Assembly (NCBI RefSeq): GCF_000092105.1
Contig: NC_014148.1
Location: 1,230,001 to 1,262,000 of the forward strand
Length of the DNA stretch: 32,000 nt
Origin: Planctopirus limnophila DSM 3776
GTDB lineage: Bacteria > Planctomycetota > Planctomycetia > Planctomycetales > Planctomycetaceae
Reading direction: 5' to 3'
This document shows positions 2,352-26,500 of this stretch, one piece after another. Every line of letters begins with the position of its first letter. The first letter of the stretch is position 1. The notes below the pieces were generated by a model. That model saw only the letters and a list, made by a program, of their open reading frames with translations, ran no database searches and was not told the DNA's origin. Made by a program: the position numbers and the translations under genes.

Positions 2352-2741
2352 TTATGGTTTAGTGACGCCTTCGAGAGCCGAGAGCCGTTCTTGGGTGAGC
2401 CGGCTGTATGTCCGGTTATGGACTAGAGGACGGATGCTGCCTCCGCGGTAGAGATCCGCCTCAAACGTGGTTTGAGCAGAACGATAATCTCTCCAGAGCT
2501 TCGATGCCTCCGAGAAGAGTCGTAGCGCCTCAGGATCTAAATCTTTGGCGACGTCCCGCTCTTTCTCAACTAGCTTTTTATCTAAATATTCAGCAATCTT
2601 ACTCGACGCAATATTCATTTCAATCTGGGTTAACGCCGACTGGAGATGCGCCTCCAAGTCCCGTAGCTTCGCATCATCAGCACGTAATGCACTGGTGAGA
2701 ACCATCGCCATAAGAACCGCATAATGAAGCTTCGTTTGCAT
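2352..2741 (-). CDS. secreted DUF1311 / LprI-like (lysozyme-inhibitor family) protein
   Basis: 129 aa with an ATG start. Signal peptide MQTKLHYAVLMAMVLTSALRA. C-terminal ASKLWRDYRSAQTTFEADLYRGGSIRPLVHNRTYSRLTQERLSAL matches the DUF1311 pattern (W..yR...C/t.fea....GGS..p......l...R...L). Confidence 0.7.
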   Translation of the reverse strand: MQTKLHYAVLMAMVLTSALRADDAKLRDLEAHLQSALTQIEMNIASSKIAEYLDKKLVEKERDVAKDLDPEALRLFSEASKLWRDYRSAQTTFEADLYRGGSIRPLVHNRTYSRLTQERLSALEGVTKP

Positions 2742-2751
2742 GTATTCTTCT

Positions 2752-2833
2752 GCCTAACGATAAAGGTAACGGCGCCGCTGCCAAAAAAACTATGTGTTCA
2801 AAATGGGCGTCATCGACGGCTACCATTCATCGC
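2752..2833 (-). repeat. attC-like imperfect palindrome (family with 5725-5805 and half-site 4033-4051)
   Basis: Minus strand: GCGATGAATGGTAGCCGTCGATGACGCC...cattttgaacacatagttttttt...GGCAGCGGCGCCGTTACCTTTATCGTTAGGC. CGATgAAtGGTA pairs with TACCTTTATCG. GTTAGGC ends 10 nt before ATG 2741. Confidence 0.5.
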
Positions 2834-2849
2834 TTTGTAATGCGTCTAT

Positions 2850-3455
2850 TCACTTTGTACAGCTTTGTGCGTGCGGCCAATACTCCAGTACATATAACCC
2901 ATCTGCAAGCAGACCCTTGCGAAAGGGTGCGCCTTGTTTCTTTGCCTCTGATACTATTCTGTTCACGTATTCGTCAAGTGATTCACCTTTGGGGCGCGCC
3001 CACGACTTCGCAGGAATTTCGTACGCGGTGACGATCCATATGTTTTCATGATATGCCAGCATCAACACAAGTTGCTCACGGGCACTCCCTTTGAAAAAGC
3101 AGGTGGCCACATCTTCCCGGCCGCCCAAAACGACGAGTTCCGTAAACCAGAGCGTCCAGCGTTGGGACCGTAGGTACTGCCCCAACGACTGAAGCGCCTC
3201 GTCGCGGGCATCGTCTTTGAGTTTGCTGAAGACGGGAATCTTGGGTAGAGGATTTGGAAGTTCATCACCTGAGAAAATGGACAGAAACTCCTCCGCAGCC
3301 GTTTCGGCTGGATGGAATTGCGTTCGGTCGTTCCGTTTCATGGGTTGAACACTCGATGCCGGAGCTCGCGTCCCATCAGCACCCCCACACCCGGAACATA
3401 AGCTTGCCACGGACAGACACAGGGCAAATGGAAAAATTACTTGTAAGCGATTCAT
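2850..3455 (-). CDS. hypothetical lipoprotein
   Basis: Single open frame across the interval. ATG at 3455 (the track start at 3461 is GTG). Lipobox-type signal MNRLQVIFPFALCLSVASLCSGC. No recognisable domain. Confidence 0.65.
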   Translation of the reverse strand: MNRLQVIFPFALCLSVASLCSGCGGADGTRAPASSVQPMKRNDRTQFHPAETAAEEFLSIFSGDELPNPLPKIPVFSKLKDDARDEALQSLGQYLRSQRWTLWFTELVVLGGREDVATCFFKGSAREQLVLMLAYHENIWIVTAYEIPAKSWARPKGESLDEYVNRIVSEAKKQGAPFRKGLLADGLYVLEYWPHAQSCTK

Positions 3456-3486
3456 CAGCACAACGCACCTTGTAAGCGAGTGGTCA

Positions 3487-3590
3487 GCCTAACGACGGGC
3501 ATCACCGAGCACGAGCGGTTGACTCAGCGCAAGTCAAAACGGCCGATCGAGTGCTTCGTGTGCATGCCATGGTTCTGCCACATGTTAGTC
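3487..3590 (-). repeat. attC-like site (104-nt family; also 5194-5297 and 9249-9338)
   Basis: Minus strand: GACTAAC-...GCACACGAAGCACTCGATCGGCCG-ttTTGACTtgcgctgAGTCAA-CCGCTCGTGCTCGGTGATGC-ccgtc-GTTAGGC. The outer boxes are complementary except for 1 nt, the arms pair with bulges, and there is a central 6-bp hairpin. Confidence 0.6.
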
Positions 3591-3592
3591 AT

Positions 3593-3792
3593 GTAGGGTG
3601 GGTTAAGTCTGCGCAACCCACCAGCACTTAACTCTCCCCCAACCTTCGCCCTCTTCGTGACCTTCGTAGTCGAATCAGACTTCCAGCAGGGTGGCCGAGA
3701 GTTGGCTTTGAGCGAGTGGGTGATGTGAATCACAAGAATCGTTCAATGGAGAGCGAGAAGGCTCCGGTTGAAGTCGTGATTTTGACGGAGCC
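3593..3792. repeat. composite repeat, copy 2 (REP 3593-3624 + hairpin GGCTCCG-18 nt-CGGAGCC at 3761-3792)
   Basis: Colinear with 1857-2088. ORF 3524-3733 is encoded entirely by repeat sequence. Confidence 0.6.
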
Positions 3793-3794
3793 AT

Positions 3795-3826
3795 GTAGGG
3801 TGGGTTAAGTCTGCGCAACCCACCAG
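3795..3826. repeat. REP hairpin GTAGGGTGGGTTaagtctgcgcAACCCACCAG
   Basis: Identical to 12595-12626, the hairpin just downstream of the uvrB stop. Confidence 0.85.
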
Positions 3827-3865
3827 CATCTACTACATGTTTACTGGAATTAGCGATCGAAAAGG

Positions 3866-3938
3866 CCTAACTCCCAAACTTCTTCGGCTTCGGAACTCTT
3901 CCGCGCTGGGCAGGCTTTTCTTCTCCACGGGCGGCGGC
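3866..3938 (-). pseudogene. orphan duplicate of the last 24 codons + stop of uvrB
   Basis: The 73 nt at 3866-3938 match 12655-12727 with 3 mismatches and encode ...[22 protein letters not shown]. There is no upstream uvrB body. It ends on the gene strand in GTTAGGC (GTTAGGT in the real gene). Confidence 0.85.
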
Positions 3939-3940
3939 GA

Positions 3941-4035
3941 CAAATTCAAAGGAGTCACGGACTCTTTGTTGTTTCAACAATTTCTTGTGACTGTCGTCAC
4001 CCAGACGTGCAAAACCTCGTCTGGGCCACCCTGCC
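3941..4035 (-). repeat. ~95-110-nt MITE/REP-like element (GGCAGGGTGGCCCAGACG..CGTCTGGGTGACgacaGTCACaagaaattgttg...gaattt)
   Basis: Copies at 5103-5196 and 11281-11388 in the same orientation, and a partial inverted copy at 29290-29345. It contains an 8-10-bp hairpin CCCAGACG(TG)/(CA)CGTCTGGG and a GTGAC/GTCAC hairpin. Confidence 0.75.
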
Positions 4036-4051
4036 GGCTCCCGTTCACCGC
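4033..4051 (-). repeat. 5' half of an attC-like site, truncated
   Basis: The 19-mer gccggctcccgttcaccgc is identical to 5787-5805 (the R''-side arm of the 5725-5805 site). Here it is followed directly by the 3941-4035 element instead of the 3' arm. The TGA stop of gene 4045-4545 lies inside CGGTGAAC. Confidence 0.55.
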
Positions 4052-4545
4052 TTGGTTCTGTCGCGTTCACGCCGATAGGGTTTCGATCCCGGCATGACAT
4101 CTGTCGTCCATGCAGTGGATTCGACATGACCGTCGAGCAAATCCAGAAATGCATACCCAATATCTTTGAGATGCGCGCGATCGATATCAAAGAAGTCCCT
4201 CCCTACGATTCCCAACGAGTTGATGGTGTCAGCGTTCAGCGGTGCATCGGATTTGTCAAGCGCTGCTATCAATGAGTCAATCGCTTTTCGTACGACACTT
4301 TGGCGCTCAGGTGTCGCCGCAGCGAATTCCATTTCGTGAGGGACACATCCGCCAAAATAAATGGATGACGCAAGAAGCCATCGATTTCGTATTTCAGGTG
4401 TTGCCGCGTGTTCGCCAAGGTCGTTAGGCTCGGGAAGGTGTAAGGCCAACATTCGTAGCCATAAAGTGAGCATGCCGTCGGTCATCCAGAAGCCGGGCTC
4501 GTTGCCGGTGGTGCCTTCCGTAATTGTGACAAACGTGGTTCCCAT
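4045..4545 (-). CDS. hypothetical protein (cassette ORF)
   Basis: 166 aa. ATG at 4545 lies 12 nt after a GTTCTGT box. No recognisable domain. Confidence 0.6.
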   Translation of the reverse strand: MGTTFVTITEGTTGNEPGFWMTDGMLTLWLRMLALHLPEPNDLGEHAATPEIRNRWLLASSIYFGGCVPHEMEFAAATPERQSVVRKAIDSLIAALDKSDAPLNADTINSLGIVGRDFFDIDRAHLKDIGYAFLDLLDGHVESTAWTTDVMPGSKPYRRERDRTKR

Positions 4546-4557
4546 ATGGATTCAGCG

Positions 4558-4648
4558 ACAGAACGTCACGCGTCACCGGGTACGCGCGAAAAAATCAGAA
4601 CTTCAAAACCGCCTGACTCGCGTGCTCCGGGGCACGCGAGTGTTACCC
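4558..4648 (-). repeat. attC-like site (91-nt family with 10333-10423)
   Basis: Minus strand: GGGTAAC-act-CGCGTGCCCCGGAGCACGCG-31 nt-CGCGTACCCGGTGACGCG-tgac-GTTCTGT. It has the same two bulged bases as its sister site plus 2 mismatches. Confidence 0.65.
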
Positions 4649-4660
4649 GCCCGTCATTGG

Positions 4661-5080
4661 CTAAATGCACCACAACCCAAACGCTTGATCAACAGCGTCA
4701 CGACCTTGATCGATCACTTTTAGGCACATGGGACAATACAGCATGTCTTCGTACGATTCTAAGTTGGTGATGGCTGAAGAGCAAACGGTACAGTGTTTGC
4801 CGCGCCAATCAGTGACATAGTCGTTTTTGGATTCGAGTCCCGCAAGACGCTGTAAGTCCGATTCGAGCAAATCAATGGCATTAAGCATCGGTTTCGATTT
4901 GCCCCAATGATCGATTGTGATTGAGCGCATCTTGGCGAAATGTAGTGCCGCTTGGGCCAGCAGTTCTATTTTGGCTTCACTTGAGACCAGAGTCATCCGC
5001 TTCGCTATCGACAGGATCGCGCCGTCCTCACGTGAAATCGCGAATGTCGGTGGCGTATCCGGATGATCAAGGTCGAGCAT
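4661..5080 (-). CDS. hypothetical protein with C-terminal CxxC...CxxC (Zn-ribbon-like)
   Basis: 139 aa with an ATG start. Contains ...KHCTVCSSAITNLESYEDMLYCPMCLKV.... Confidence 0.6.
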   Translation of the reverse strand: MLDLDHPDTPPTFAISREDGAILSIAKRMTLVSSEAKIELLAQAALHFAKMRSITIDHWGKSKPMLNAIDLLESDLQRLAGLESKNDYVTDWRGKHCTVCSSAITNLESYEDMLYCPMCLKVIDQGRDAVDQAFGLWCI

Positions 5081-5102
5081 GAGTCTTTGTCCGGTAACAC
5101 AG

Positions 5103-5196
5103 AAAATTCATAGGGGTCAGGACTCTTGGTTGTCTCAACAATTTCTTGTGACTGTCGTCATCCAGACGTGCAAAGCCACATCTGGGCCACCCTGCC
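5103..5196 (-). repeat. MITE/REP-like element copy (same family as 3941-4035)
   Basis: Sits between the GTTAGGC box (5200-5194) and ATG 5080, i.e. in the cassette leader. Confidence 0.75.
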
Positions 5197-5297
5197 TAAC
5201 GACGGGCATCACCGAGCACGAGCGGTTGACTCAGCGCAAGTCAAAACGGCCGATCGAGTGCTTCGTGTGCATGCCATGGTTCTGCCACATTTTAGTG
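5194..5297 (-). repeat. attC-like site (104-nt family)
   Basis: Nearly identical to 3487-3590. The 5' box is degenerate (CACTAAA) and contains the TAA stop of gene 5292-5711. It ends in GTTAGGC. Confidence 0.6.
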
Positions 5298-5711
5298 ATG
5301 GTTCGCGTCCATGTCATCAGGTTCGATGATCGGTGTACCGGCCATGAGTCTGGCCGAGAAGGCATCGAATGATGGGGACAGTTCTCGAAAGTCCTCCCAT
5401 TGAAGCGACGTTGCGGGAATGTCACCGACAGCACCAGTTCCGTTTTCACGAACATCAATTGCATATAGTTCGCCACATCCATCAGTGCCGAAGCCGAGCA
5501 GTCCGGGCGCGAATTCATCAAATCCGTATTCTCGGCTGAATTGCAAAACGTCACGCAACGGCCACATGCACACCAAACCAGAGCCAATTGACTCGATATC
5601 CATTTTTACGGCCCCGTGTTGACAGTGAAAATCAACGAACGATTGCGGCATTGTCTTTGGACATGCCGCAAGGAAATCGTCAATCTCAGTTTGGGTTGGA
5701 ATCAAGGGCAT
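5292..5711 (-). CDS. SMI1/KNR4 (SUKH-superfamily) immunity-type protein
   Basis: 139 aa. TEIDDFLAACPKTMPQSFVDFHCQHGA... and ...LLGFGTDGCGELYAIDV... match the SMI1_KNR4 pattern (N-terminal l..lP..y..f....g; central fg.dg.G..y..d). Confidence 0.75.
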   Translation of the reverse strand: MPLIPTQTEIDDFLAACPKTMPQSFVDFHCQHGAVKMDIESIGSGLVCMWPLRDVLQFSREYGFDEFAPGLLGFGTDGCGELYAIDVRENGTGAVGDIPATSLQWEDFRELSPSFDAFSARLMAGTPIIEPDDMDANHH

Positions 5712-5724
5712 TGGTGGCTTAGTG

Positions 5725-5805
5725 GCAGAACGACAGCGGTAACGGGGCCGCCGCCAAAAAACTATGATTTCAAATCTCGCGTCATCGCCGGCTCCCGTTC
5801 ACCGC
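5725..5805 (-). repeat. attC-like site (family with 2752-2833)
   Basis: Minus strand: GCGGT[G]AACGGGAGCCGGCGATGACGCG-agatttgaaatcatagtttttt-GGCGGCGGCCCCGTTACCGC-tgtc-GTTCTGC. GCGGTgAACGGG pairs with CCCGTTACCGC, leaving one bulged G. Confidence 0.5.
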
Positions 5806-5809
5806 ATTT

Positions 5810-6463
5810 TTATCCGTCTTTTCGCGCAAGATCAGTGACCAGCAGTGGATTCGATTTGCGATGCAGTTCAATGATCTCTTCGCAAGTTGTGGACTTGTTC
5901 ATCAGGCTGTCGAGCTCCGACTGCGTGATGCCGAAGGCTTGAATGAAGTCTACGTGACCGTGCGGAGTTTCTGCCGCCTGAAGCTTTGTGTCATGCACGA
6001 ATGCGAGGCCCACAATGTCAGTTTCATGGTCAGCGCGAATTGGACCGTTGGCAGGAATCCAGTGGTAGTTGTCAAACCATTTGCCAGATTCAAATACGTA
6101 CCGAGCAAGATTCTGCAATAAGTTGCAGACCCAGATTGGTTCTTCCCTTGGCGGGAGCGAGCTCGCCAATCGAAAAGTCATTTCGAATCCGAACTTGCTG
6201 AAATCACCACCCACTGATTCTTCATCGTAGTACAGCGAGGAATATCCGAACGTCACAAAGTGCAAGTGGTCAATGCCCCCATCTTCACACGGATAGGCGC
6301 TGATACCGTCAAGTGGATCAGGACCACCAAGACGGTGGCTTATGATGGTCCCCCAGTGCTTGGGTTCGAGGTCACCATACTCGTCGCGCAGGCTGGCATT
6401 CAACGAATCCCAACCGGGCGATGAGTCTTCGGCGAAACGTCGCTTGTATTCTTTAAGGTCCAT
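5810..6463 (-). CDS. Suppressor-of-fused (SUFU)-like family protein (bacterial immunity-type)
   Basis: 217 aa. ...HLHFVTFGYSSLYYDEESVGGDFSKFGFEMTFRL... is the hallmark SUFU-domain core (H..yvt.GlseLy....e....sG.GfElt.Rl). Confidence 0.8.
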   Translation of the reverse strand: MDLKEYKRRFAEDSSPGWDSLNASLRDEYGDLEPKHWGTIISHRLGGPDPLDGISAYPCEDGGIDHLHFVTFGYSSLYYDEESVGGDFSKFGFEMTFRLASSLPPREEPIWVCNLLQNLARYVFESGKWFDNYHWIPANGPIRADHETDIVGLAFVHDTKLQAAETPHGHVDFIQAFGITQSELDSLMNKSTTCEEIIELHRKSNPLLVTDLARKDG

Positions 6464-6472
6464 AGACGTGAC

Positions 6473-6562
6473 GGATAACGACCAAGATCAGCCGGTTGCC
6501 GCGACTGACGTTCCAATGTGTGCGCAGCCCATCGGCAACTCGGCTGCATCTTTTTGTTACTT
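6473..6562 (-). repeat. attC-like site (90-nt family with 7008-7097, 8064-8154, 8662-8753)
   Basis: Minus strand: AAGTAAC-aaaaagatgcagccGAGTTGCCGatgggc...gcggCAACCggctgatcttggtc-GTTATCC. The GTT box lies 9 nt before ATG 6463. Confidence 0.6.
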
Positions 6563-6575
6563 GCGTTTTGTGCGT

Positions 6576-6953
6576 TCAGTATTCGCCGTAGGGCCAGCCT
6601 GCCTGCAGTATTTTGCCGTCAGACACAATGATTTTTGCCTCACACGGCTTGTGGTCACCACCTCCGCCAGCCAAAACATTATAAGCGTGAATCTTTTTGT
6701 CGCCATCAGTCTTCGTCCTGTCAGCCAGCGACAACAATTCTGCGTAGTCTGCGGAAGGTCTGCCTGCGAGATCATCTTTTGCACTGATGAGCCAACGAAT
6801 CTCGTTCAGGAGTTCGTCTTGTCGTTCCTCCTGGGCTTGCGTCAGTGAATGGGTCGTCCAGCCGTCAACATCTGGGTTTCGGGTGCACCCGCAGACAGCC
6901 ACCAGCCACAGGCTGAAGCTGGCTATCGCCATGTAGGTTTGCGGCGAAGGCAT
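6576..6953 (-). CDS. hypothetical lipoprotein
   Basis: ATG at 6953 (the track start at 6980 is TTG). MPSPQTYMAIASFSLWLVAVCGC is a lipobox-type signal. Confidence 0.6.
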   Translation of the reverse strand: MPSPQTYMAIASFSLWLVAVCGCTRNPDVDGWTTHSLTQAQEERQDELLNEIRWLISAKDDLAGRPSADYAELLSLADRTKTDGDKKIHAYNVLAGGGGDHKPCEAKIIVSDGKILQAGWPYGEY

Positions 6954-7007
6954 TGTGAATGTCCCTTGTTGGTTCCGCAAGACGACAGCCGCCCGGGCAG
7001 TATTTGC

Positions 7008-7097
7008 AAGTAACGGCTAAAATCACGCGGTTGCGGCCAAGTGACTTACCATCAGGAAACGCGCGATCCGCAACTCGCGTGCATTTTTTTGTTCTGT
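7008..7097 (-). repeat. attC-like site (90-nt family)
   Basis: Minus strand: (TGA)CAGAAC-aaaaaaatgcacgcGAGTTGCGGatcgcgcg...ggCCGCAACCgcgtgattttagcc-GTTACTT. The 5' box abuts the TGA stop of gene 7097-7501. Confidence 0.6.
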
Positions 7098-7501
7098 CAC
7101 GTTTTGGGGAGATCGCCAAAGTCGTCGGCGATCAGTTCGATTTCGCCCGTTTCGTGATCCCACCAGTATACCGAATGCTGTAGCGTGTCGGGATGCTCCG
7201 ACATTGGTATCAGCACCAGCAAATCACCGCCACCGTTTGCGCCAATCGCCACGGCGTCTGTCGGAAATGCATACCAGTCTTTTCTCGCGGTGGTTGTTTC
7301 TCGGTCAATGCTACTGCATGTTCGTTGGATGAGTTTGCGATCGGACTCGTCAAGAATCGGGAATAACTCAAAGTGGTCGATCCGAGTTCGAACAGTGCCA
7401 CCATTCTTTTGTACCATCGCCGTCACGAATGACGCCGGAAATCGCACACCGAGTTTCTGCTCGGTCTGCCTGATCCATTTTTCGTCAACAGGGAACGGCA
7501 T
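7097..7501 (-). CDS. SMI1/KNR4 (SUKH-1) immunity-type protein
   Basis: 134 aa. IRQTEQKLGVRFPASFVTAMVQKNGG (classic SMI1_KNR4 N-terminus), ...AVAIGANGGGDLLVLIP..., ...VYWWDHETGEIELIADDFGDL. Confidence 0.85.
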   Translation of the reverse strand: MPFPVDEKWIRQTEQKLGVRFPASFVTAMVQKNGGTVRTRIDHFELFPILDESDRKLIQRTCSSIDRETTTARKDWYAFPTDAVAIGANGGGDLLVLIPMSEHPDTLQHSVYWWDHETGEIELIADDFGDLPKT

Positions 7502-7522
7502 TGCAGTGATAGGTTTCCAGTG

Positions 7523-7768
7523 ACAGAACAGGTATTCGACCGCCGAAGTGCGGTAGAATTTTACCGCACTTCGGCGGCGTAGTATGGACGTGTCGAAATT
7601 GATTTGTCAAACTGCGAAAATAGTTGCGACGAACCGCTGATGACAACTCCATGCGACTCCGCACTTGGCCTCCATAGTAGGCCGCACTCTTCACAATCGC
7701 GACCCGACGTGCGTCCGTCACCTCCAGCCTGACACCAATCGCAGCGGTTAGCACAAACGAGTCCTGCC
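7523..7768 (-). repeat. ~245-nt composite repeat: conserved ~85-nt 5' module + attC-like palindrome ending GTTCTGT (copy 1 of 3)
   Basis: Copies at 10972-11218 and 11774-11980. Conserved module: GGACTCGTTTGTGCTAACCGCTGCGATTGGTGTCAGGCTGGAGGTGACGGACGCACGTCGGGTCGCGATTGTGAAGA. The arms CCAAGTGCGG... / ...CCGCACTTCGG pair. This copy has an extra perfect 16-bp hairpin at 7540-7577. Confidence 0.55.
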
Positions 7769-8043
7769 TCTTTTTCTGACCCGTCGTCGGTATGCCCACC
7801 GATGTCCTGGTATCCGAACATATCCTCGGTCATCTCGTGCTCTAGACGCACGTCAATCCGGTGCCCGCTGTGGTCTGCCAAGAACTTCGAAAGCACTTGG
7901 TTGAGTTGCTGCCGCGCCCAGTGAGCAGGTTCTTCGGGCCCGCCAATATGGAAAGCAAACGGACGGTAGTTGCAATGGAGCGCCTTACCAAGGAACAGCG
8001 ACTGTCGGCAGTCGTGGCAGTTTAAGTAGCCGTAAATGCTCAT
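7561..8043 (-). CDS. hypothetical protein; 3' third is read out of the composite repeat
   Basis: ATG at 8043 (MSIYGYLNCHDCRQ...). The track start at 8130 lies inside the upstream attC-like site. The unique sequence ends near 7775 without a stop. The frame continues through the repeat (…GLVCANRCDWCQAGGDGRTSGRDCEECG…) to TAA at 7561. Confidence 0.5.
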   Translation of the reverse strand: MSIYGYLNCHDCRQSLFLGKALHCNYRPFAFHIGGPEEPAHWARQQLNQVLSKFLADHSGHRIDVRLEHEMTEDMFGYQDIGGHTDDGSEKEAGLVCANRCDWCQAGGDGRTSGRDCEECGLLWRPSAESHGVVISGSSQLFSQFDKSISTRPYYAAEVR

Positions 8044-8063
8044 CGCCGTGAAGACCTCTGGTT

Positions 8064-8154
8064 GCCGAACGGCTAAAATCACTCGGTTGCCGCTAAGAGA
8101 CTTTGACTTCAGGAAACGCCCGATCGGCAACTCAGGTGCATTTTTTGGTTCGTC
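8064..8154 (-). repeat. attC-like site (90-nt family)
   Basis: Minus strand: GACGAAC-cAAAAAT[G]CAC[C]TGAGTTGCCG-atcgggcgtttcctgaagtcaaagtctcttag-CGGCAACCGAGTGATTTT-agcc-GTTCGGC. The outer boxes are complementary except for 1 nt. Confidence 0.6.
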
Positions 8155-8162
8155 CTTGTCTG

Positions 8163-8543
8163 CTATTCAGGATGATACTTTCCGGACGAAAGTCCATCGA
8201 ACAACTCAATCGGGTTAGCGGTAAACTTCGCCGCATTCGAATTGCGAACAGCAGCAAGCAGCAAATCTAATTTGGGTTCAGCAAGAATATCGTTCGTGAG
8301 CACCAGCAGCCAATCAAAGTGACAGGCCAACTTTGTCACACCGTTTGCAAATTCTTTGTATTCCGTCGGAAGGGCAATCCTGCACGATACTTCCACGATT
8401 CTTGCGGTCTCGTAGACAAAATGGATGCGGTTCCCGTTTTCCGATCCCCACATCAGGATCTCGTTCGACCATGAATGATACTGATGTGAAATGGCGTCAA
8501 CAATCGGCGCCACGTCACAGCCGGGTTGTTGCTGCCATGCCAA
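8163..8543 (-). CDS. hypothetical protein (cassette ORF)
   Basis: 126 aa. TTG start at 8543 is preceded by GAGGA 7 nt upstream. The start is uncertain and no domain is recognised. Confidence 0.5.
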   Translation of the reverse strand: MAWQQQPGCDVAPIVDAISHQYHSWSNEILMWGSENGNRIHFVYETARIVEVSCRIALPTEYKEFANGVTKLACHFDWLLVLTNDILAEPKLDLLLAAVRNSNAAKFTANPIELFDGLSSGKYHPE

Positions 8544-8661
8544 ATCAAAATCCTCAGCAATCGAGGATTGGGGCAGCGTGCCGTACTTGGCGATCAGTAG
8601 ACCGCAAGGAAGCAGCCCGAATCGGTACTAATGCACAGCCAAATGGTTGCTCCCTTCGGAG

Positions 8662-8753
8662 GACGAACGGCAACCATCACCGAGTGGCCGCCGAAAAAGG
8701 TTCTATAGTCGAGCGCCGCCGATCGGCCAATTCGGTGCATGGTTTTGTTATCG
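8662..8753 (-). repeat. attC-like site (90-nt family)
   Basis: Minus strand: CGATAAC-aaAACCAT[G]CACCGAatTGGCCgatcggcgg...cggcGGCCActCGGTGATGGTT-gcc-GTTCGTC. Confidence 0.6.
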
Positions 8754-8762
8754 GACTGTTCG

Positions 8763-9230
8763 TCAATCCCAGAAGTTGAAGATGATCTCTCCGGACGTGC
8801 TTGGATTGTGCACAAGAATCTGATCGTATTCTGAATCCGACATGTCAACAAGCTCCATTTTGTGAGGAGGAATTGTCAAGTCAGAATGGCTAAGTATCGC
8901 ATAGCCACCAATCTCATTCCAGTAAATGGCGTATTCAGGACGATCAATGAATTTGGCAATCACCTCGCCAACACACATCGGTTCCGCAAATGCGAGCATT
9001 GGATAGTGAGCGTTGAAAAGAATCGCGAACCCATCACTATTGGTCTCGAATGTCACACTGGTGAAGTTCTTCTCCGCCGTCCCAACTCTGCGATCGACCC
9101 GAACAATTTTTGCAGCTAGTTTTCTGGCGAATGCATAACAGTGATTAAGGAATGCTGATTCGTCAGTAGATGGTGGCGGCGGGTCGAGATAGTAATAGAA
9201 CCCCGTGATTCCATAAGGCGGGCGCTGCAT
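8763..9230 (-). CDS. hypothetical protein (cassette ORF)
   Basis: 155 aa with an ATG start (MQRPPYGITGFYYYLDPPPP...). No recognisable domain. Confidence 0.6.
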   Translation of the reverse strand: MQRPPYGITGFYYYLDPPPPSTDESAFLNHCYAFARKLAAKIVRVDRRVGTAEKNFTSVTFETNSDGFAILFNAHYPMLAFAEPMCVGEVIAKFIDRPEYAIYWNEIGGYAILSHSDLTIPPHKMELVDMSDSEYDQILVHNPSTSGEIIFNFWD

Positions 9231-9248
9231 CTCGTCCTTTCCTGTTTC

Positions 9249-9338
9249 CGATAACGTTGGGGTTCAGCGGGCACGAGTGGTTGAGTCGCCATTGCGAAAA
9301 CGGCTGATCGAGTACTCCGTTGCAACCCATTGTTATCG
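9249..9338 (-). repeat. attC-like site (related to the 104-nt family)
   Basis: Minus strand: CGATAAC-...GGGTTgCAaCGGaGtACTCGATCAGCCG-ttttcgcaatggcgactcaa-CCACTCGTGCCCGCTGAACCCC-aac-GTTATCG. The outer 7-mers are perfectly complementary. The TAA stop of gene 9333-9881 lies inside CGATAAC. Confidence 0.65.
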
Positions 9339-9881
9339 CAATTTTCGATCTTCGAATGCGATGGATTTCAAACAGGCAATGTCGATTGATTGGGCATTTG
9401 CATCGTCCGGTTGTTGCACTACGTTCGACTCAATTCCGAATTGAGTCAATCGGCCGTGCAACCATTCCATCTCTGTTCTTGTTCCAGTATACACGACGCC
9501 GGGCATGCGGTTTTTCATAGGAGCGACCTCTTCCATGGTCGTGTTCAAATCGCAATGAAGAATCTTGCAGGCTTGAAGTCGTTTTGGGCCTTCGACAGTG
9601 ATTTGCAATCCCCATCTTCCTGAGGATTCCATGATCTCGTCGCGAATCTCGTTCGGTGGCAGTCCATAGTCGTCGGCTTCAATTGCCATTCCGCAGCTCG
9701 CGCACCGCGTTGATTTAAACCATACAAGACTGGCACCAGCAACGGATTGCCCAAATGCAATGGATGCAGCTGCGCCACAGTCAGTGCATTTGTCCGTATG
9801 AGTCACCATTGATCGTGTCGATCCGTCGGTTTGATAGCGATAACGTCCCGCATCAGCGGGCGGCGGGAGTAAAGCTTCCAT
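9333..9881 (-). CDS. hypothetical protein with CxxC-(26)-CxxC Zn-ribbon-like motif
   Basis: ATG at 9881 (MEALLPPPADAG...). The track start at 10010 is TTG and would overlap the upstream gene by 56 nt. Contains KCTDCGAAAS...STRCASCG. Confidence 0.5.
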   Translation of the reverse strand: MEALLPPPADAGRYRYQTDGSTRSMVTHTDKCTDCGAAASIAFGQSVAGASLVWFKSTRCASCGMAIEADDYGLPPNEIRDEIMESSGRWGLQITVEGPKRLQACKILHCDLNTTMEEVAPMKNRMPGVVYTGTRTEMEWLHGRLTQFGIESNVVQQPDDANAQSIDIACLKSIAFEDRKLR

Positions 9882-9954
9882 TTGTAAAATCGTCTCCACC
9901 GCCGCTCCGTTGCATGCGATGGTTTGCCACAACGTCCTGTGTGACTTAAGGTTA

Positions 9955-10308
9955 TCAAATCCAACCCGCCTTGGCACATGCGGCTGCCGCAATGCCGAGT
10001 AATCCGCCAACGAAGTACGCAGTCGATGACAGTGGCCACGCCGTAAACGAACCGTGGAGCAATCGTTTTCGAATCGCGTGAAGCCCCGTCAGGACGAACG
10101 CGGATCCAACAAGAATCGGAACTACATTTGGCCAGTTTACAAATACACCCAGAATCTGAAGTAGTCCGAAGAATACGAACGCACCGAAGCAAACGGCTTT
10201 CATCGCTGTAATCACAACAAACACTATCCGCTGAGGAGCGGAGGCAGTGTCGATGCCGGAACGCTCAACGCTTGCTGTGCTGGCCAGTGGTGGATCGTAA
10301 GGATTCAT
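9955..10308 (-). CDS. small integral membrane protein (3-4 predicted TM helices)
   Basis: ATG at 10308 (MNPYDPPLAS...). The track start at 10344 is a GTG inside the attC-like site. Hydrophobic stretches: IVFVVITAMKAVCFGAFVFFGLLQILGVF, VVPILVGSAFVLTGL, YFVGGLLGIAAAACA. Confidence 0.6.
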   Translation of the reverse strand: MNPYDPPLASTASVERSGIDTASAPQRIVFVVITAMKAVCFGAFVFFGLLQILGVFVNWPNVVPILVGSAFVLTGLHAIRKRLLHGSFTAWPLSSTAYFVGGLLGIAAAACAKAGWI

Positions 10309-10332
10309 GTTACCGAACGAGTTGTGCTTGTT

Positions 10333-10423
10333 GGCGAACGTCACGCGTCACCGGGTACGCGCGAAAAACTGTCAATTTCAAAACCGCCCGATTCGCGTAC
10401 TCCGGTGCACGCGATTGTTACCC
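10333..10423 (-). repeat. attC-like site (best-formed example)
   Basis: Minus strand: GGGTAAC-aat-CGCGT[G]CACCGG[A]GTACGCG-32 nt-CGCGTACCCGGTGACGCG-tgac-GTTCGCC. An 18-bp perfect stem carries two single-base bulges 6 bp apart on the 5' arm. It starts 1 nt after the TAG stop at 10425. Confidence 0.7.
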
Positions 10424-10424
10424 G

Positions 10425-10943
10425 CTACTTCACCACCCATAATGGCAGTCGTTTCTTAAGTGCGTAGCGAGCAAGTGGAAGCAGTTGGGTAAAAGTTTGG
10501 ATCTCCATGTCGTCGTCGATTAGATCATCATCGTCAGCATAGTGATGGTACAGTTTATCTAGCGAATCGTCATCCGTCGGAAGATTTAGGGCGTTACCGA
10601 TTAGTTCAAGTTCGGCAATTAGATTTGACAGGCAGCCGATGTCCAAATTTGTCGCATCGCCCGGGAATTCAAACGTTCCTGTTTCAGTCTCGATCGGGAC
10701 ATAAACGCCACTCCATGCTTCCATCGACAAGAAGTGCGGAATGGCTTCGGCACCGCACGCATCCGCCGCTCGTTGTTGAAGCGTGGACCATCCGGACCAG
10801 CCCAATTCGTAGGAGTAACGTTCGTCAGTGGAGTCGTAATCGATCGCGTCACCGAAGTGAGCGCGCAATGTGTCCGCAACGAGAGTGCCATGCGGTTCCG
10901 TAAATACAGTCGTCGGTGCAGAAACAGTGAAGACGAGTGCCAT
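10425..10943 (-). CDS. acidic hypothetical protein (cassette ORF)
   Basis: ATG at 10943 (MALVFTVSAPTT...). The track N-terminal extension is repeat-encoded. Asp-rich C-terminal half (…HHYADDDDLIDDDMEIQ…). Confidence 0.6.
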   Translation of the reverse strand: MALVFTVSAPTTVFTEPHGTLVADTLRAHFGDAIDYDSTDERYSYELGWSGWSTLQQRAADACGAEAIPHFLSMEAWSGVYVPIETETGTFEFPGDATNLDIGCLSNLIAELELIGNALNLPTDDDSLDKLYHHYADDDDLIDDDMEIQTFTQLLPLARYALKKRLPLWVVK

Positions 10944-10971
10944 GCCAATGGAGTCAGAAAAGGATTTGGTC

Positions 10972-11218
10972 GGGTAACAGGTATTCGACCGCCAAAGTAC
11001 GGTAGAAAATTGCTGTAGTTTTGCGGTGTGGCGTGGACTTGTCAATTTTAATGTGCCAGATTCTCCAAAGATCTACGACAGATCGTCTCACACAGTCCCA
11101 TGCTATACCGCATTTGGCTACCATACTATGCCGCATTCTTCACAATCGCGACCCGACGTGCGTCCGTCACCTCCTGCCTGACACCAATCGCAGCGGTTAG
11201 CACAAACGAGTCCTAACC
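10972..11218 (-). repeat. ~245-nt composite repeat, copy 2 (ends GTTACCC)
   Basis: Shares the 85-nt module and the terminal ...CTACCGTACTTTGGCGGTCGAATACCTGTTACCC with copies 1 and 3. Confidence 0.55.
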
Positions 11219-11227
11219 CCGTATCCC

Positions 11228-11275
11228 CCACCAACGAGCCGGAAGCGTAAGCGACGGGCACTCTAAAGAGATCAA
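11228..11275. repeat. dispersed ~48-nt repeat (as 1724-1771)
   Basis: ccaccaacgagccggaagcgtaagcgacgggcactc is identical to 1724-1759. Confidence 0.8.
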
Positions 11276-11280
11276 CGCCG

Positions 11281-11388
11281 AAAATTCAAAGGGATCAAAA
11301 ATTCAAAGAGGCCAGGACTCTTCGTTGTCTAAACGATTTCTTGTGCCTATCCTCACCCAGACGTGCAAAGCCACGTCTGGGCCACCCC
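11281..11388 (-). repeat. MITE/REP-like element copy
   Basis: Same family as 3941-4035 and 5103-5196, with a duplicated aaattcaaag end. Confidence 0.7.
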
Positions 11389-11411
11389 CCGATTGTTTGC
11401 CGATTTGTCTG

Positions 11412-11759
11412 CTACGGGCTTCTTCCACTTTCGATCATTTGGAAGTCGTTGCCTTGCTTATGTCTCCATTCTCCCCAAACTACTCCTGTGATCGCAATCG
11501 GCAATAGGGTAAGGCTGATCTTCTTGATGTGATCGTCGGTGAACGACTCCAAGTCCAATCGGAATATCCGGGTTTCAGTCAAACCTGGGGGCGCTGTATG
11601 CGTCCGTGTAATGTCTAATTGAATTCTCTCAACGACCAGGGTGCCAATCGCCCATTCCCAGTAATCCTCAGCATCGAACGAAACGTCGGCAAGACCGAGG
11701 ATATCGGCAATCTCCTCCAGCGAGCATGTCGATCTGAACCAGATGTCCGTAATTTCCAT
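11412..11759 (-). CDS. hypothetical protein (cassette ORF)
   Basis: ATG at 11759 (MEITDIWFRSTCSLEEIADILG...). The track N-terminal 21 aa are repeat-encoded. Confidence 0.55.
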   Translation of the reverse strand: MEITDIWFRSTCSLEEIADILGLADVSFDAEDYWEWAIGTLVVERIQLDITRTHTAPPGLTETRIFRLDLESFTDDHIKKISLTLLPIAITGVVWGEWRHKQGNDFQMIESGRSP

Positions 11760-11773
11760 TGTATTGCCAGTCG

Positions 11774-11980
11774 GCAGAACAGGAATTCGACCGCCGAAGT
11801 GCGGTAGATATTGATTTGTCAAACTGCGAAACGACTTGCGACGAACCGCTGATTATAACTTCATGCTACACCGCACTTGGCCACCAGACGTTGCCGCAAT
11901 CTTCACAATCGCGACCCGACGTGCGTCCGTCACCTCCAGCCTGACACCAATCGCAGCGGTCAGCACAAACGAGTCCTGCC
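11774..11980 (-). repeat. composite repeat, copy 3 (ends GTTCTGC; 5' box GCGGCAAC)
   Basis: Minus strand: ...GCGGCAAC-gtctggtgg-CCAAGTGCGGTGTAG-58 nt-CTACCGCACTTCGG-cggtcgaattcct-GTTCTGC, 14 nt before ATG 11759. Confidence 0.55.
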
Positions 11981-12059
11981 CCCTTTTCCTCCCCTGGGCC
12001 AACCTGCCATTTTTACCTCCGCAGCAGAAAGATGCGGCTCAGCAATCTGTGAGTGGCAC

Positions 12060-12500
12060 TTACAATCTCACATTAACACCTTTCTGATAAAACATATCAG
12101 CCTCGACTGAGGCCAAAGTCTTGGGATGCCAAGCCAGCTCTTCTTCCTGCACCGAGCGGGTAATCATCCGGCCAAGCAAGTATGCATCTCCCACTGCTGA
12201 ATACTGCCAGAAAGTGGTATCCTGATTCCCAATCTCTCGCTTGAAAATAAGATAGGCCAAGTCGAAGAAAACCCTCGCCCAAAACTTGCGCTCATCTCGC
12301 GTGGGAAACTCCCGCTCAATCGCGAACTCATAACCCGGAAAGAACGCGACGCTCCTCTCCCGAAGTCCAGCGATGAAAGGTCTCTCACCATCTGAATCTG
12401 CCGTTTTCTCCGCGACCTGCAATCCAAACTCAATCAGCGAATGAAACCGCTGATTGGAGACGTAGAAGAACTGGTCTTGGTAGGAGATGCAACTGGACAT
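12060..12500 (-). CDS. hypothetical protein (first ORF downstream of uvrB)
   Basis: 146 aa with an ATG start (MSSCISYQDQFFYVSNQRF...). No recognisable domain. Confidence 0.6.
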   Translation of the reverse strand: MSSCISYQDQFFYVSNQRFHSLIEFGLQVAEKTADSDGERPFIAGLRERSVAFFPGYEFAIEREFPTRDERKFWARVFFDLAYLIFKREIGNQDTTFWQYSAVGDAYLLGRMITRSVQEEELAWHPKTLASVEADMFYQKGVNVRL

Positions 12501-12594
12501 ATGCGAGAGATACCTGACTTGTGACTCTCTGGATCAAACGCTCTGAAAATACCATTTGCAAGCTGCACATCAATCGAAAAAGCCATTTAGCCAT

Positions 12595-12626
12595 GTAGGG
12601 TGGGTTAAGTCTGCGCAACCCACCAG
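12595..12626 (-). terminator. REP hairpin 28 nt downstream of the uvrB stop (probable terminator/REP)
   Basis: GTAGGGTGGGTTaagtctgcgcAACCCACCAG with an 8-bp GC-rich stem. Identical to 3795-3826. No clear U-tract, so terminator function is an inference. Confidence 0.45.
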
Positions 12627-12655
12627 CATTAAATAAATAAACCAGTCGATAACAC

Positions 12656-14779
12656 CTAACTCCCAAACTTCTTCGGCTTCGGAACTCTCCCGCGCTGGGC
12701 GGGCTTTTCTTCTCCGCGGGCGGCGGCACCTCGACTTTTACGCCGGCCTCGATTCTTCGGTTCCCGATCGCGCTGGGTCGTCAGGTCTTCATCCGCCTGA
12801 ATCGCCTGGCCCACCTGCTTCTTGAGTTGCAGAATCCGGTCACGTAGTTGAGCAGCCCGTTCAAAGTCGAGACTTTCCGCCGCCTTGAGCATTTCCGCTT
12901 CAAGCTCTGAAATGTATTCCAGTGTGACGTACTCGACCTCGCTTGACTTGCCACTGGCCTGCTGCACAATCTTGTTTGCCTCGGCATCCTCTTCAATCCC
13001 TCGCCGGATCGATTTGCGGATGGTTTCGGGCGTGATGCCGTGCTTTTTGTTATACGCCACCTGGAGTTCACGGCGGCGGTTGGTTTCATCAATCGCCAGC
13101 TGCATGCTGTTCGTGACCGAATCGGCATACAGATAGACCTCTGCATTAACGTTTCGTGCAGAGCGGCCAATCGTTTGAATGAGACTGGTTTCGCTACGCA
13201 GGAAGCCTTCTTTATCGGCATCGAGAATTGCAACCAGCGAAACTTCAGGAATATCAAGACCTTCTCGCAACAGGTTCACACCCACGAGCGTATCGTATTT
13301 CCCCTCGCGCAGTTCGCGAATGATTTCGACACGCTCGAACGCATCGAGTTCGCTATGCAGCCAGGCGCAGCGTAAACCTTCTTCGCGGAGATAAGCGGTC
13401 AGATCTTCGCAGAGTTTCTTGGTGAGGGCGGTGACCAGCACGCGCTCGTCTTTCTCGGCACGTCCTTTAATCAGCCCCATCAAGTGCTGTACCTGCCCGC
13501 GCGAAGGATGAATATGGATGACCGGATCGACCAGTCCGGTGGGACGGATCACCTGCTCGACAATCTCACCTTGCGACTGTTCTAATTCCCAGTCGGAAGG
13601 GGTGGCCGATACAAAAATGGCCTGCTTACGGCGAGTCTCCCATTCATCAAATTTGAGAGGCCTGTTATCCAAAGCCATGGGCAAGCGGAAGCCGTGTTCG
13701 ACCAGTGTCGTTTTCCGCGCATGATCGCCATTGAACATCGCACGAATCTGCGGAATTGTTACATGCGATTCATCAATAAACGTGAGGAAATCATTAGGAA
13801 AGAAGTCGAGTAGCGTATAGGGTGGTTCACCAGGCGGCCTGCCAGAAAGGGCTCGGCTATAGTTTTCGATCCCGGGGCAGAAGCCAACTTCGCGCAAAAG
13901 TTCCAGGTCGTGCCGGGTGCGGGCATTGAGCCGTTGAGCTTCGAGAAGTTTGCCTTCTTTTTTGAACTTTTCGAGTTGTTCGGCTAATTCCTTTTCGATC
14001 TCGGCCACAGCACTCGCGACACGATCTTCCGGGAGGACATAGTGCTTAGCCGGATAAATATAGATCTCTTCCAACGAGCGCACTTCATCACTCGTTACCG
14101 GGTGAATGATGGAGAGTTTGTCGATCTCATCTCCCCACAGCTCAATGCGATAGGCAAATTCCTCGTAAGCGGGCCAAACGTCGATCACATCGCCCCGCAC
14201 ACGAAAGTTGGCCCGTTCGGGTGCATGGTCATTCCGGGTGTACTGGATATCGCAAAGTTTGCGGAGCAGTTCGTCTCGATCAATGGATTCCCCCTTACGC
14301 AGAGGGATCATCATTTCGAGATAATCTTTGGGAGAACCCAGCCCGTAAATACAACTGACAGAAGCCACCACAATCACATCCCGCCGGCTCACCAGAGCAC
14401 TCGTCGCGAGCAGACGAAGCCTGTCGATTTCTTCGTTAATCGACGAGTCTTTTTCGATATAAATATCCCGCTGAGGGATATAAGCCTCCGGCTGATAGTA
14501 GTCGTAGTAGCTCACAAAATAAGTGACGGCGTTATGCGGGAAGAATTCTTTAAACTCGGCATAAAGCTGTGCCGCCAGCGTCTTGTTGTGAGACAACACA
14601 AGTGCCGGCCGTTGAAGCTGCTCGATGACATTCGCCATGGTGAATGTCTTCCCCGAACCGGTGACCCCCAGCAGTGTCTGATTCTTTCGATCGTTCTTCA
14701 GGCCTTTGACGAGCGCTTCAATCGCTTTGGGTTGATCCCCTGCGGGACGAAAACGGGAATCTATCTGAAACTGTGGCAT
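12656..14779 (-). CDS. uvrB: excinuclease ABC subunit B
   Basis: 707 aa. N-terminus [20 protein letters not shown], Walker [24 protein letters not shown] (DExH), and a C-terminal UVR motif [29 protein letters not shown] ~60-aa Arg/Lys-rich tail follows. Confidence 0.97.
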
Positions 14780-21444: not shown

Positions 21445-21518
21445 GGGCGGTTAGCTCAGTTGGTTAGAGCGTCACGCTTACACCGTGAATGTCGGGGGTT
21501 CGAGTCCCTCACCGCCCA
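21445..21518 (+). tRNA. tRNA-Val (anticodon UAC)
   Basis: Hand-folded cloverleaf. Acceptor GGGCGGT/ACCGCCC, D stem GCTC/GAGC, anticodon stem TCACG/CGTGA with loop CTTACAC, variable ATGTC, T arm GGGGG-TTCGAGT-CCCTC, discriminator A. CCA is not encoded. Confidence 0.9.
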
Positions 21519-22797: not shown

Positions 22798-23110
22798 TGA
22801 ATGAACCCCTACAGTTCGAATGAGCTAGAACAATCAAACGATATCACGAATCACGAACAGCGCGCAAGAGTCATCAGCAGCTTGCATGCTTCACAGGTCA
22901 GCAGCAGCAGTGAGTTTACGTGGCCATATCGGCAGAAATTCCCACATGCCGAAAACCGTCAAAGGTCATGCCCCCCGCTGGAAGGACCCCAAAAACGTGG
23001 GACATTAACAGCCAGGGGAAATCGGCATGTCTATCGAATCCGCGCGGGTGCGAACATCGCGGGGATGAATCGACCCCCGGGAAGGACCCACGAGCTTTTC
23101 CCGTGGCCGG

Positions 23111-26226: not shown

Positions 26227-26287
26227 AGTTGTGCCTTTCGGGAGCCACGTCCGCCAGTTGAAGGGGGAGACGTGGCTTCTCTTTTGA

Positions 26288-26500
26288 TTAGAGAACGGGA
26301 GCATTGGCCGGGGAATCACACGATTCACCACGCAGCCACTTCACGAGAGTTTCCCGGCAAAACAACACTCTTCGACCGATCTTGCGGTGAGGGACTTCGC
26401 CCCGCTTCACGAGTCGATCCAGAGTGGCCAAAGACAGCCCCAACAATCGAGCCGCCTGAACACGATCACAGGCCAGGGGTTCGGGAGAGTTAGCGGGCAT
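26288..26500 (-). CDS. excisionase-family helix-turn-helix DNA-binding protein
   Basis: 70 aa. VQAARLLGLSLATLDRLVKRGEVPHRKIGRRVLFCRETLVKWL fits the excisionase/AlpA-MerR-type HTH pattern. Confidence 0.75.
   Translation of the reverse strand: MPANSPEPLACDRVQAARLLGLSLATLDRLVKRGEVPHRKIGRRVLFCRETLVKWLRGESCDSPANAPVL

Follow-up and report, generated by a model that had tools for sequence, protein, structure and literature searches.

Clusters of attC sites without an integron integrase (CALIN) are a described type of gene cassette array, and only 6.6% of them exceed 10 sites (Cury et al. 2016, PMC4889954); knowledge of planctomycete integron integrases (IntI) dates back to 2011 or earlier (PMC3108266). 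Here we describe an array of this known kind in Planctopirus limnophila DSM 3776 (Planctomycetaceae), found in a stretch of 32,000 nucleotides (nt) of contig NC_014148.1 (positions 1,230,001–1,262,000; hereafter the window, to which coordinates refer), where 16 small co-oriented open reading frames (ORFs) occupy the minus strand between uvrB and a housekeeping gene to the left. The locus is a CALIN-type array in which SUKH and SUFU cassettes show a notable, local enrichment. Our interpretation, which we consider probable, is that of a sedentary chromosomal integron cassette array without a neighboring IntI, located downstream of uvrB and carrying heterogeneous cargo.

Relation to Described Arrays and Immunity Loci

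The locus shares with the CALIN at least two co-oriented attC sites, cassettes of approximately 0.5–1 kb, unrelated small genes mostly without a family, a chromosomal location, and the absence of intI within the clustering distance (4 kb rule). With 12 sites it falls into the upper size tail of this class, and it differs in its head region (ORF14–ORF16), which is built on a 240-nt repeat, D1, rather than on attC or a recognizable attI. The complete sedentary integrons, such as the Vibrio superintegrons and the array of Stieleria maiorica, have the same cassette architecture, and the latter also shares the attC family and a SUKH cassette; but a complete integron has intI, attI, and the promoter Pc at its head, a place taken in the window by uvrB.

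Regarding the cargo, extended polyimmunity loci comprise at least four tandem immunity genes and, as of 2012, had been recorded in proteobacteria, bacteroidetes, firmicutes, and actinobacteria only, in a paper in which the word integron does not occur (Zhang et al. 2012, PMC3482391). The window resembles them in its tandem, same-strand, mutually unrelated SUKH, SUFU, and SUKH genes without a toxin, but the recognized genes number three and are interrupted by a lipoprotein-like gene. The recombinase-associated acquired interbacterial defense (rAID-1) arrays of the Bacteroidales (Ross et al. 2019, 10.1101/471110) likewise consist of co-oriented small orphan genes including SUKH-type immunity families, with repetitive intergenic sequences, no toxin, and variability between relatives. 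Their definition requires an XerD-like recombinase at the 5′ end, with 44% or more identity to BF9343_RS08045, followed by at least two co-oriented low-GC genes, and they have an intergenic motif of their own, whereas the window has true attC sites, no adjacent recombinase, and a GC content only slightly lower in the array (0.49–0.54) than in most of the remaining window (0.55–0.59). Many rAID-1 genes are demonstrable homologs of type VI secretion system (T6SS) immunity genes, with protection confirmed by experiment; in the array of the window 3 of 16 genes belong to immunity families, as predicted from sequence. Since Ross et al. already likened rAID-1 arrays to integrons, finding in them "hallmarks of integrons" (10.1101/471110), the concept of an immunity array is itself not new, and T6SS immunity arrays were also compared with integrons by Kirchberger et al. 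Phage-defense cargo is established for integrons (10.1101/2024.07.02.601686, 10.1101/2024.07.02.601719). In our full-text literature search, no paper described integron cassettes that carry SUKH, SuFu, or Imm genes, and two large surveys of cassette function mention neither immunity nor polymorphic toxins, the supplements of one of them being also without these families; this agrees with the remark, in a first-pass annotation of the window, that immunity-gene cargo had not been highlighted as a dominant function of integron cassettes.

attC Sites and Cassette Structure

Between 2750 and 10425, small genes that are promoterless, co-oriented, and mutually unrelated are set apart by 12 attC sites, all of one family. 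They are imperfect palindromes of 90–100 nt, located at 11 gene junctions and before ORF1, which begins 9 nt beyond the last attC. On the plus strand the sites start with ..(T/G)AACG and end with ..GTT.., AACG and GTT being invariant across all 12. RNAalifold analysis of the aligned sites revealed a 17-pair stem with compensatory changes in 13 of the 17 pairs, and two single-base bulges are kept on the 3′ arm of the plus (bottom) strand; integron attC sites have just this anatomy on their recombinogenic bottom strand. A covariance model (R1) built from these sites and run filters-off over all 32 kb scored them at 65–89 bits, against at most 11 bits for their opposite strands, and detected nothing else above 8 bits (E ≥ 3.9).

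From the array head, and all on the plus strand, the sites detected by R1 are c12 (10331–10425, 89 bits), c11 (9836–9930, 78 bits), c10 (9247–9340, 78 bits; its R boxes CGATAAC and GTTATCG pair 7/7), c9 (8660–8755, 78 bits), c8 (8062–8156, 85 bits), c7 (7006–7099, 78 bits), c6 (6471–6564, 81 bits; folded), c5 (5723–5817, 88.5 bits), c4 (5192–5287; 98% identical to c2), c3 (4556–4650; 89% identical to c12), c2 (3485–3580, 80 bits), and the last site, c1 (2750–2845, 65 bits), with a degenerate R″ box (GCATTAC). All are co-oriented with the ORFs. Genes mostly start 8–25 nt past the preceding attC (the leaders of ORF4 and ORF10 measure approximately 110 nt), stop codons often overlap the following R″ box, and cassette lengths range from 495 to 1071 nt. 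The first-pass annotation had proposed an attC-type cassette platform, and the R boxes, bulges, and covariation of the 12 sites bear this out, with the attC-bounded part limited to 2750–10425. R1 found no attC downstream of ORF1; a decayed site considered there showed a 15-nt loop-like similarity only and was unconvincing.

All 16 ORFs listed in that annotation were found on the minus strand, at the same or nearly the same coordinates, and all-against-all BLASTP revealed no paralogy among them. Its statement that no toxin is in sight also held: between 1431 and 12655 neither strand contains an ORF longer than 225 amino acids (aa) or a toxin domain recognized by Pfam. A contig from the independent read set SRR017855 is 100% identical to 5194–7555, and the array is therefore no assembly artefact.

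The Same attC Family beside an Integron Integrase

Given that R1 was derived from the window sites only, its matches elsewhere constitute independent evidence. The model detected at least 13 attC sites at 48–78 bits in Stieleria maiorica (CP036264; locus L206, L numbers denoting fetched loci), diverging from a gene for an IntI with a TIGR02249 score of 398.5 bits (cut-off 265); the window thus shares its attC family with an array beside a canonical planctomycete IntI. Further matches were at least 13 sites in metagenome scaffold L084 and 4 sites in L083, both reached through homologs of ORF14, as well as 37 sites in loci to which homologs of ORF8 or ORF11 had led and 161 sites in contigs that a degenerate attC DNA pattern had retrieved.

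The window itself encodes no IntI, and as attC sites are present without it, the array is classified as a CALIN. No intI is found within 19 kb on the uvrB side, and the 1.4 kb visible on the other side holds a housekeeping gene. The sole tyrosine recombinase of the window (439 aa, 21478–22797), located 9 kb away and adjoining tRNA-Val, has no match to TIGR02249 and scores far below the cut-offs of all families that it matched. Downstream of uvrB, no array was found at any of 80 loci from relatives, with a single weak attC-like match in L008, next to htpG, which makes the array of the window lineage-specific.

Of the 142 ORFs in all cassettes sampled, 33 were anti-oriented, and on four metagenome loci with attC sites of this family at 50–75 bits (L113:3090–7078, L156, L142, and L144) the longest inter-attC ORFs run opposite to the strand predicted from attC; it is unusual among integrons for an entire array to have its ORFs inverted. 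At L208:2463–3875, a group II intron reverse transcriptase (RVT_1 and GIIM) was observed inside a planctomycete cassette array that also carries the SUKH cassette of ORF8. Group II introns are known to associate with integron arrays, and L208 fits this pattern.

SUKH, SUFU, and LprI Proteins in the Array

The four family assignments of the first-pass annotation were all recovered by Pfam above the gathering score. ORF8 (7097–7501, 134 aa) and ORF5 (5292–5711, 139 aa) match SMI1_KNR4, the SUKH family (PF09346, gathering score 25.4), with E = 5.3e-18 (66.3 bits, profile positions 1–121 of 125) and E = 6.7e-8 (33.6 bits, positions 2–123 of 125), respectively. ORF6 (5810–6463, 217 aa) matches SUFU (PF05076) over positions 1–172 of 172 (E = 3.6e-43, 147.8 bits) and also the N-terminal domain structure of human SUFU (1m1l, E = 8e-25). 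ORF1 (2352–2741, 129 aa) matches LprI, or DUF1311 (PF07007, E = 1.8e-12, 48 bits, gathering score 22). A PDB sequence search with LprI and ORF8 gave no useful match.

Both SUKH genes and the SUFU gene are single-gene cassettes, and all three fall within four consecutive cassettes. The SUKH and SuFu families were predicted by Zhang et al. to be immunity proteins of polymorphic toxin systems, directed against nuclease toxins, and both are found in polyimmunity loci (PMC3113570, PMC3482391). DUF1311/LprI had been placed among families used as immunity or inhibitor proteins in the first-pass annotation; it is absent from the 2012 immunity catalog (PMC3482391), and ORF1 lies outside the attC-bounded part. 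LprI has a signal peptide, a hydrophobic N-terminus evident in the sequence; a secreted protein of an inhibitor family, at the array edge, is its most fitting description.

To place this cargo among integron cassettes at large we relied on two Pfam surveys, one of 124 ORFs from arrays fetched regardless of their cargo, which assumed ORFs to be co-oriented with attC, and a strand-blind one of 121 ORFs from contigs fetched by attC pattern only. The first was richest in GNAT acetyltransferases, beta-lactamases, HEAT, and HD domains; SMI1_KNR4 occurred twice only, both times in L084, and singletons included TIR (CAP12), Mrr, an AHJR-like restriction endonuclease, and patatin. The second contained no SUKH, SuFu, or Imm family with at least two members, and 34 ORFs from the arrays with the closest attC sites yielded no immunity families, only a RES-Xre toxin–antitoxin pair and weak HNH matches. 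Immunity is therefore not a dominant function of integron cassettes. In the window, immunity families account for 3 of the 13 attC-cassette ORFs, compared with 3 of 124 (Fisher P = 0.011) or 0 of 108 (P = 0.001), and the sibling array L084, reached via ORF14, carries two to three SMI1_KNR4 cassettes and a DUF4284 (Imm22) cassette. Immunity-family cargo is significantly enriched in these two arrays and rare in integron cassettes at large. The bank of orphan immunity genes proposed in the first-pass annotation is accordingly only partly supported: it would cover the three enriched cassettes (two SUKH, one SUFU), or 3–4 of the 16 ORFs with LprI, and 12 other ORFs could be assigned to no family.

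Cassettes Recurring in Other Arrays

Searching the 16 ORFs against 213 fetched loci with tblastn showed that only ORF8, ORF11, and ORF14 recur. ORF8 has 345 homologs at E < 1e-5, the best 120 of which are 65–85% identical and nearly all exactly 134 aa long; the best homologs come from Stieleria, Rhodopirellula, Aeoliella, Bremerella, Rubripirellula, Schlesneria, and many metagenome-assembled genomes (MAGs). Homologs from Pirellulales and metagenomes are 80–84% identical to ORF8, whereas UvrB is only 63–70% identical to its counterparts in the Pirellulales; the cassette is more conserved across orders than UvrB, which argues for horizontal spread. ORF8 homologs are flanked by attC on both sides in L206 (81% aa identity), L207, and L208–L210, and when the cassettes of L206, L207, L208, and the window are aligned as DNA, homology sets in precisely at G|TTCTGTC and spans the ORF together with its attC. 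Judging from these boundaries, the cassette is the mobile unit.

The ORF14 family comprises 35 homologs of approximately 172 aa with an invariant GWSGW motif and a C-terminal LWVVK, none of which has a Pfam domain; homologs are attC-flanked in L083–L086. Its AlphaFold (AF2) model is confident, with a predicted local distance difference test score (pLDDT) of 91.3, and Foldseek found no neighbor of this model in the PDB (best E 0.48, template modeling score at most approximately 0.2). ORF11 has only four homologs, one with an attC just upstream (L203), and its AlphaFold model, based on five sequences, is unusable (pLDDT 47). It was also observed that members of the ORF14 family (L082–L086) form the first gene of an attC-bounded cassette run in three independent loci, and that a cassette for a PARG-like protein (poly-ADP-ribose glycohydrolase) directly follows the ORF14 homolog of L083 (L083:10650–11675). 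PARG-type enzymes can reverse the action of ADP-ribosylating toxins.

Origin and Role of the Cargo

Under our interpretation, the cassettes would have been captured singly by IntI-catalyzed recombination of folded bottom-strand attC sites, from a source pool common to the Planctomycetota, the responsible IntI being either encoded elsewhere in the genome or lost. The products of the two SUKH cassettes and the SUFU cassette would most likely be orphan immunity proteins, binding and neutralizing nuclease-type toxins delivered by competitors, and such orphan cassettes may confer pre-emptive protection in cells that lack the cognate toxin. For the secreted LprI-like protein, inhibition of a lytic enzyme acting in the periplasm is a possible role. 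For three cassettes it is plausible to speak of an integron-style library of orphan immunity genes, but not as a general description, and the remaining 12 genes should not be counted as immunity genes. As a tentative extension, which we regard as possible rather than likely, planctomycete integrons might in part be attC/IntI-based platforms of acquired interbacterial defense, with orphan SUKH, SUFU, and Imm cassettes circulating across orders, as exemplified by the 134-aa SUKH cassette at 65–85% identity in Planctomycetales and Pirellulales, and being stockpiled against contact-dependent toxins.

Several observations weigh against this interpretation as a whole or in part. The 32-kb window yielded neither IntI nor attI nor a Pc promoter, and the array head departs from the cassette pattern: ORF15 and ORF16 are without attC, ORF14 is without an upstream attC, and the repeats D1 and D2 lie between them. 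Three quarters of the cargo (75%) is unclassified, as 12 of the 16 ORFs match no Pfam family at E ≤ 0.1 except for sub-threshold zinc-ribbon fragments, and a scan of all 16 ORFs with NCBIfam gave no match. The immunity role of SUKH and SUFU is predicted at the level of the families. None of eight genomic contexts of ORF8 homologs has an adjoining toxin gene, and therefore no cognate toxin class can be named; the connection of ORF8 to polymorphic-toxin immunity comes from the family-level literature. Moreover, three of the eight contexts (L211–L213) have the ORF8 homolog as a singleton among housekeeping genes without attC, and these together with the strong conservation of ORF8 leave room for a conserved cellular role.

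That last point leads to the likeliest of the competing explanations, to which we assign a rather low likelihood: SUKH and SUFU genes would be generic integron cargo, present only for being abundant, small, and self-sufficient in the mobile gene pools of planctomycetes, and their role in the host is adaptor-like, regulatory, or otherwise conserved and cellular, not interbacterial immunity. SUKH is expanded in planctomycetes, with 21 paralogs in Gemmata (PMC3113570), the eukaryotic SUKH and SUFU proteins are adaptors, and the ORF8 family, with its fixed length of 134 aa, is unusually conserved for an immunity protein. The singletons between housekeeping genes and the lack of toxin neighbors noted above fit this explanation equally. 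Three of 13 cassettes is however far above the genomic frequency of approximately 0.3% and above the 3 of 124 found in other cassettes, and the cross-order identity in excess of that of UvrB argues for horizontal spread under selection, not for vertical housekeeping descent.

We consider the full reading of the first-pass annotation unlikely, with the whole array as a dedicated, shufflable library of orphan immunity genes, an attC-based system of acquired interbacterial defense, in which most of the 12 family-less ORFs also encode immunity proteins. The clustering of ORF5, ORF6, and ORF8 within four consecutive cassettes would suit such a library, as would the character of the other ORFs, which are small, mostly acidic, mutually unrelated, and single-domain, two of them with lipoprotein-like leaders. 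Heterogeneous polyimmunity loci are known (PMC3482391), and homologs of ORF14 occur alongside SMI1_KNR4 and Imm22 cassettes in L084 and next to the PARG-like cassette in L083. On the other hand, neither Pfam Imm1–Imm74 nor SUKH matches any of the 12 at E ≤ 0.1, the confident model of ORF14 has no neighbor in the PDB, small acidic ORFs without a family are typical of integron cassettes generally, and the arrays of the same attC family carry, in 34 ORFs, the RES-Xre pair and further family-less ORFs without any immunity family.

Still less likely, and in our view quite improbable, is a role of the cassettes in anti-phage defense or anti-defense. There is precedent for such cargo in Vibrio chromosomal integrons and in mobile integrons (10.1101/2024.07.02.601686, 10.1101/2024.07.02.601719), viral SUKH domains bind host factors (PMC3113570), and the wider cassette sample includes the TIR, Mrr, AHJR-like, and patatin singletons mentioned above; but PADLOC gave no match for 14 of the 16 ORFs and only marginal partial ones for ORF4 and ORF8 (E ≥ 0.001, approximately 35 residues), and Pfam detected no nuclease, ATPase, TIR, or similar effector domain in the array. 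Finally, the idea that there is no integron and that the intergenic repeats are ordinary palindromes, terminator-like or of the repetitive extragenic palindromic (REP) type, is extremely improbable: other repeats do co-occur in the region (D1, D2, and the GGGTGGGTTAAG..CAACCCACC hairpin), but it is already contradicted by the attC structure of the 12 sites, with their covariation, R boxes, bulged bases, and strand asymmetry, and by R1, which finds the array beside a true IntI in Stieleria maiorica and 161 more sites in attC-pattern contigs.

Implications for Integron Cargo

Environmental integron cassettes number in the thousands and their functions are largely unknown; phage defense is a recent addition to antibiotic resistance and toxin–antitoxin modules. 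The present locus provides a concrete, testable case for a fourth class of cargo, orphan immunity against interbacterial toxins, and this case is strengthened because the SUKH cassette is common to several planctomycete arrays, one of which stands beside a true IntI. It is tempered by the local nature of the enrichment, which characterizes some arrays and is neither general nor dominant, and the unclassified cargo includes a family, that of ORF14, with a confidently predicted fold and no solved relative. If planctomycete integrons do serve in part as defense platforms, integrons would parallel, in mechanism, the rAID systems of the Bacteroidales. Two leads stand out as most useful, namely the 134-aa SUKH cassette, which is widely shared, and the repeat D1, whose homology ends exactly at cassette junctions.

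Other Genes of the Locus

The array head adjoins the 3′ end of uvrB (707 aa, 12656–14779, minus strand), whose product is 56–82% identical to those of 80 genomes, with the best matches in Schlesneria sp. MAGs (80–82%). The gene at the other end, for an SRPBCC and epimerase-like housekeeping protein, starts near 1400 and extends past the window edge.

Counting from uvrB, the family-less ORFs, all on the minus strand, are ORF16 (12060–12500, 146 aa), with attC on neither side; ORF15 (11412–11759, 115 aa); ORF14 (10425–10943, 172 aa, isoelectric point (pI) 4.1), with attC downstream only; ORF13 (9955–10308, 117 aa), a hydrophobic membrane protein with a grand average of hydropathy (GRAVY) of 0.90; ORF12 (9333–9809, 158 aa), with CxxC...CxxC motifs; ORF11 (8763–9230, 155 aa); ORF10 (8163–8543, 126 aa); ORF9 (7561–8043); ORF7 (6576–6953, 125 aa), with a lipoprotein-like N-terminus (..LVAVCGC); ORF4 (4661–5080, 139 aa), with a C-terminal CxxC...CxxC and sub-threshold zinc-ribbon matches only; ORF3 (4045–4545, 166 aa); and ORF2 (2850–3455, 201 aa), also with a lipoprotein-like N-terminus (..SLCSGC). 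Most of these 12 are acidic (pI 4.1–5.7), ORF13 being the hydrophobic one. The starts at 8043, 9809, 10308, 10943, and 11759 are corrected ones, as several longer calls began within attC sites. The true 3′ end of ORF9 is uncertain because its 3′ third, below about 7765, reads through a copy of D1; this part is probably non-coding.

Repeats Other than attC

D1 is a non-coding repeat of approximately 240 nt, present in three copies on the minus strand (copy 1, 7527–7765; copy 2, 10976–11214; copy 3, 11739–11977) with a core approximately 95% identical. Its homology stops exactly at ..GAATACCTG|TT, directly 5′ of ORF8, ORF14, and ORF15, copies 2 and 3 ending in ..CCTGTT. Copy 1 occupies the place of the attC that precedes the ORF8 cassette in other arrays, and the GTT at its border with ORF8 is the cassette boundary that follows attC in three of them. 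As the end of homology coincides with a cassette boundary, D1 is a candidate attI-like element, and it may be an attI-like or secondary recombination site, possibly bearing a promoter: copy 1 contains a promoter-like TTGACA-18-CATACT (7610->7581). A sigma-70 promoter scan gave fewer matches than shuffled sequence and was uninformative. D1 is absent from Rfam and from all other fetched loci, and Rfam returned tRNA-Val only, both for the whole window at gathering score and for 10900–12700 at E ≤ 1. Two further readings of D1 were rejected, namely an unusual attC (there is no end-to-end fold; z = −0.3 for copy 2) and a small gene (no frame is open in all three copies).

The second repeat, D2 (90 nt, minus strand), consists of several short hairpins, one of them terminator-like and followed by a T-run, and is found after ORF15 (11298–11387), between attC c4 and ORF4 (5103–5192), and after ORF3 (3942–4031); D1 and D2, not attC, organize the array head (ORF14–ORF16). 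A diverged copy of D2, 75% complementary and in inverse orientation, was observed at 3683–3738.

The last 82 nt of uvrB and the downstream hairpin are duplicated at 3789–3938 (minus strand; 92–93% identical to the original at 12589–12727), 8.8 kb from the original. The duplicate encodes the same C-terminal peptide and brackets the block from ORF16 to ORF3; it resembles a scar left when an array segment formerly adjoining uvrB was inserted by Campbell-type homologous recombination, or was duplicated. A GC-rich hairpin (GGGTGGGTTAAGTCTGCGCAACCCACC) occurs five times (1807–1856, 1851–1874, 3587–3636, 3789–3838, and 12589–12638) and, together with the repeats D11, D12, and D16, makes up a composite element of approximately 200–280 nt at 1807–2084 and 3587–3789, resembling REP sequences or miniature inverted-repeat transposable elements (MITEs).

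A tRNA-Val Island in the Same Window

The tyrosine recombinase mentioned above belongs to a separate island (21445–28021) that is unrelated to the cassette array. The island starts at tRNA-Val (21445–21518), which the recombinase gene overlaps on the opposite strand, and it also encodes an 866-aa primase/helicase-like protein (23111–25711) along with small genes without a known family.

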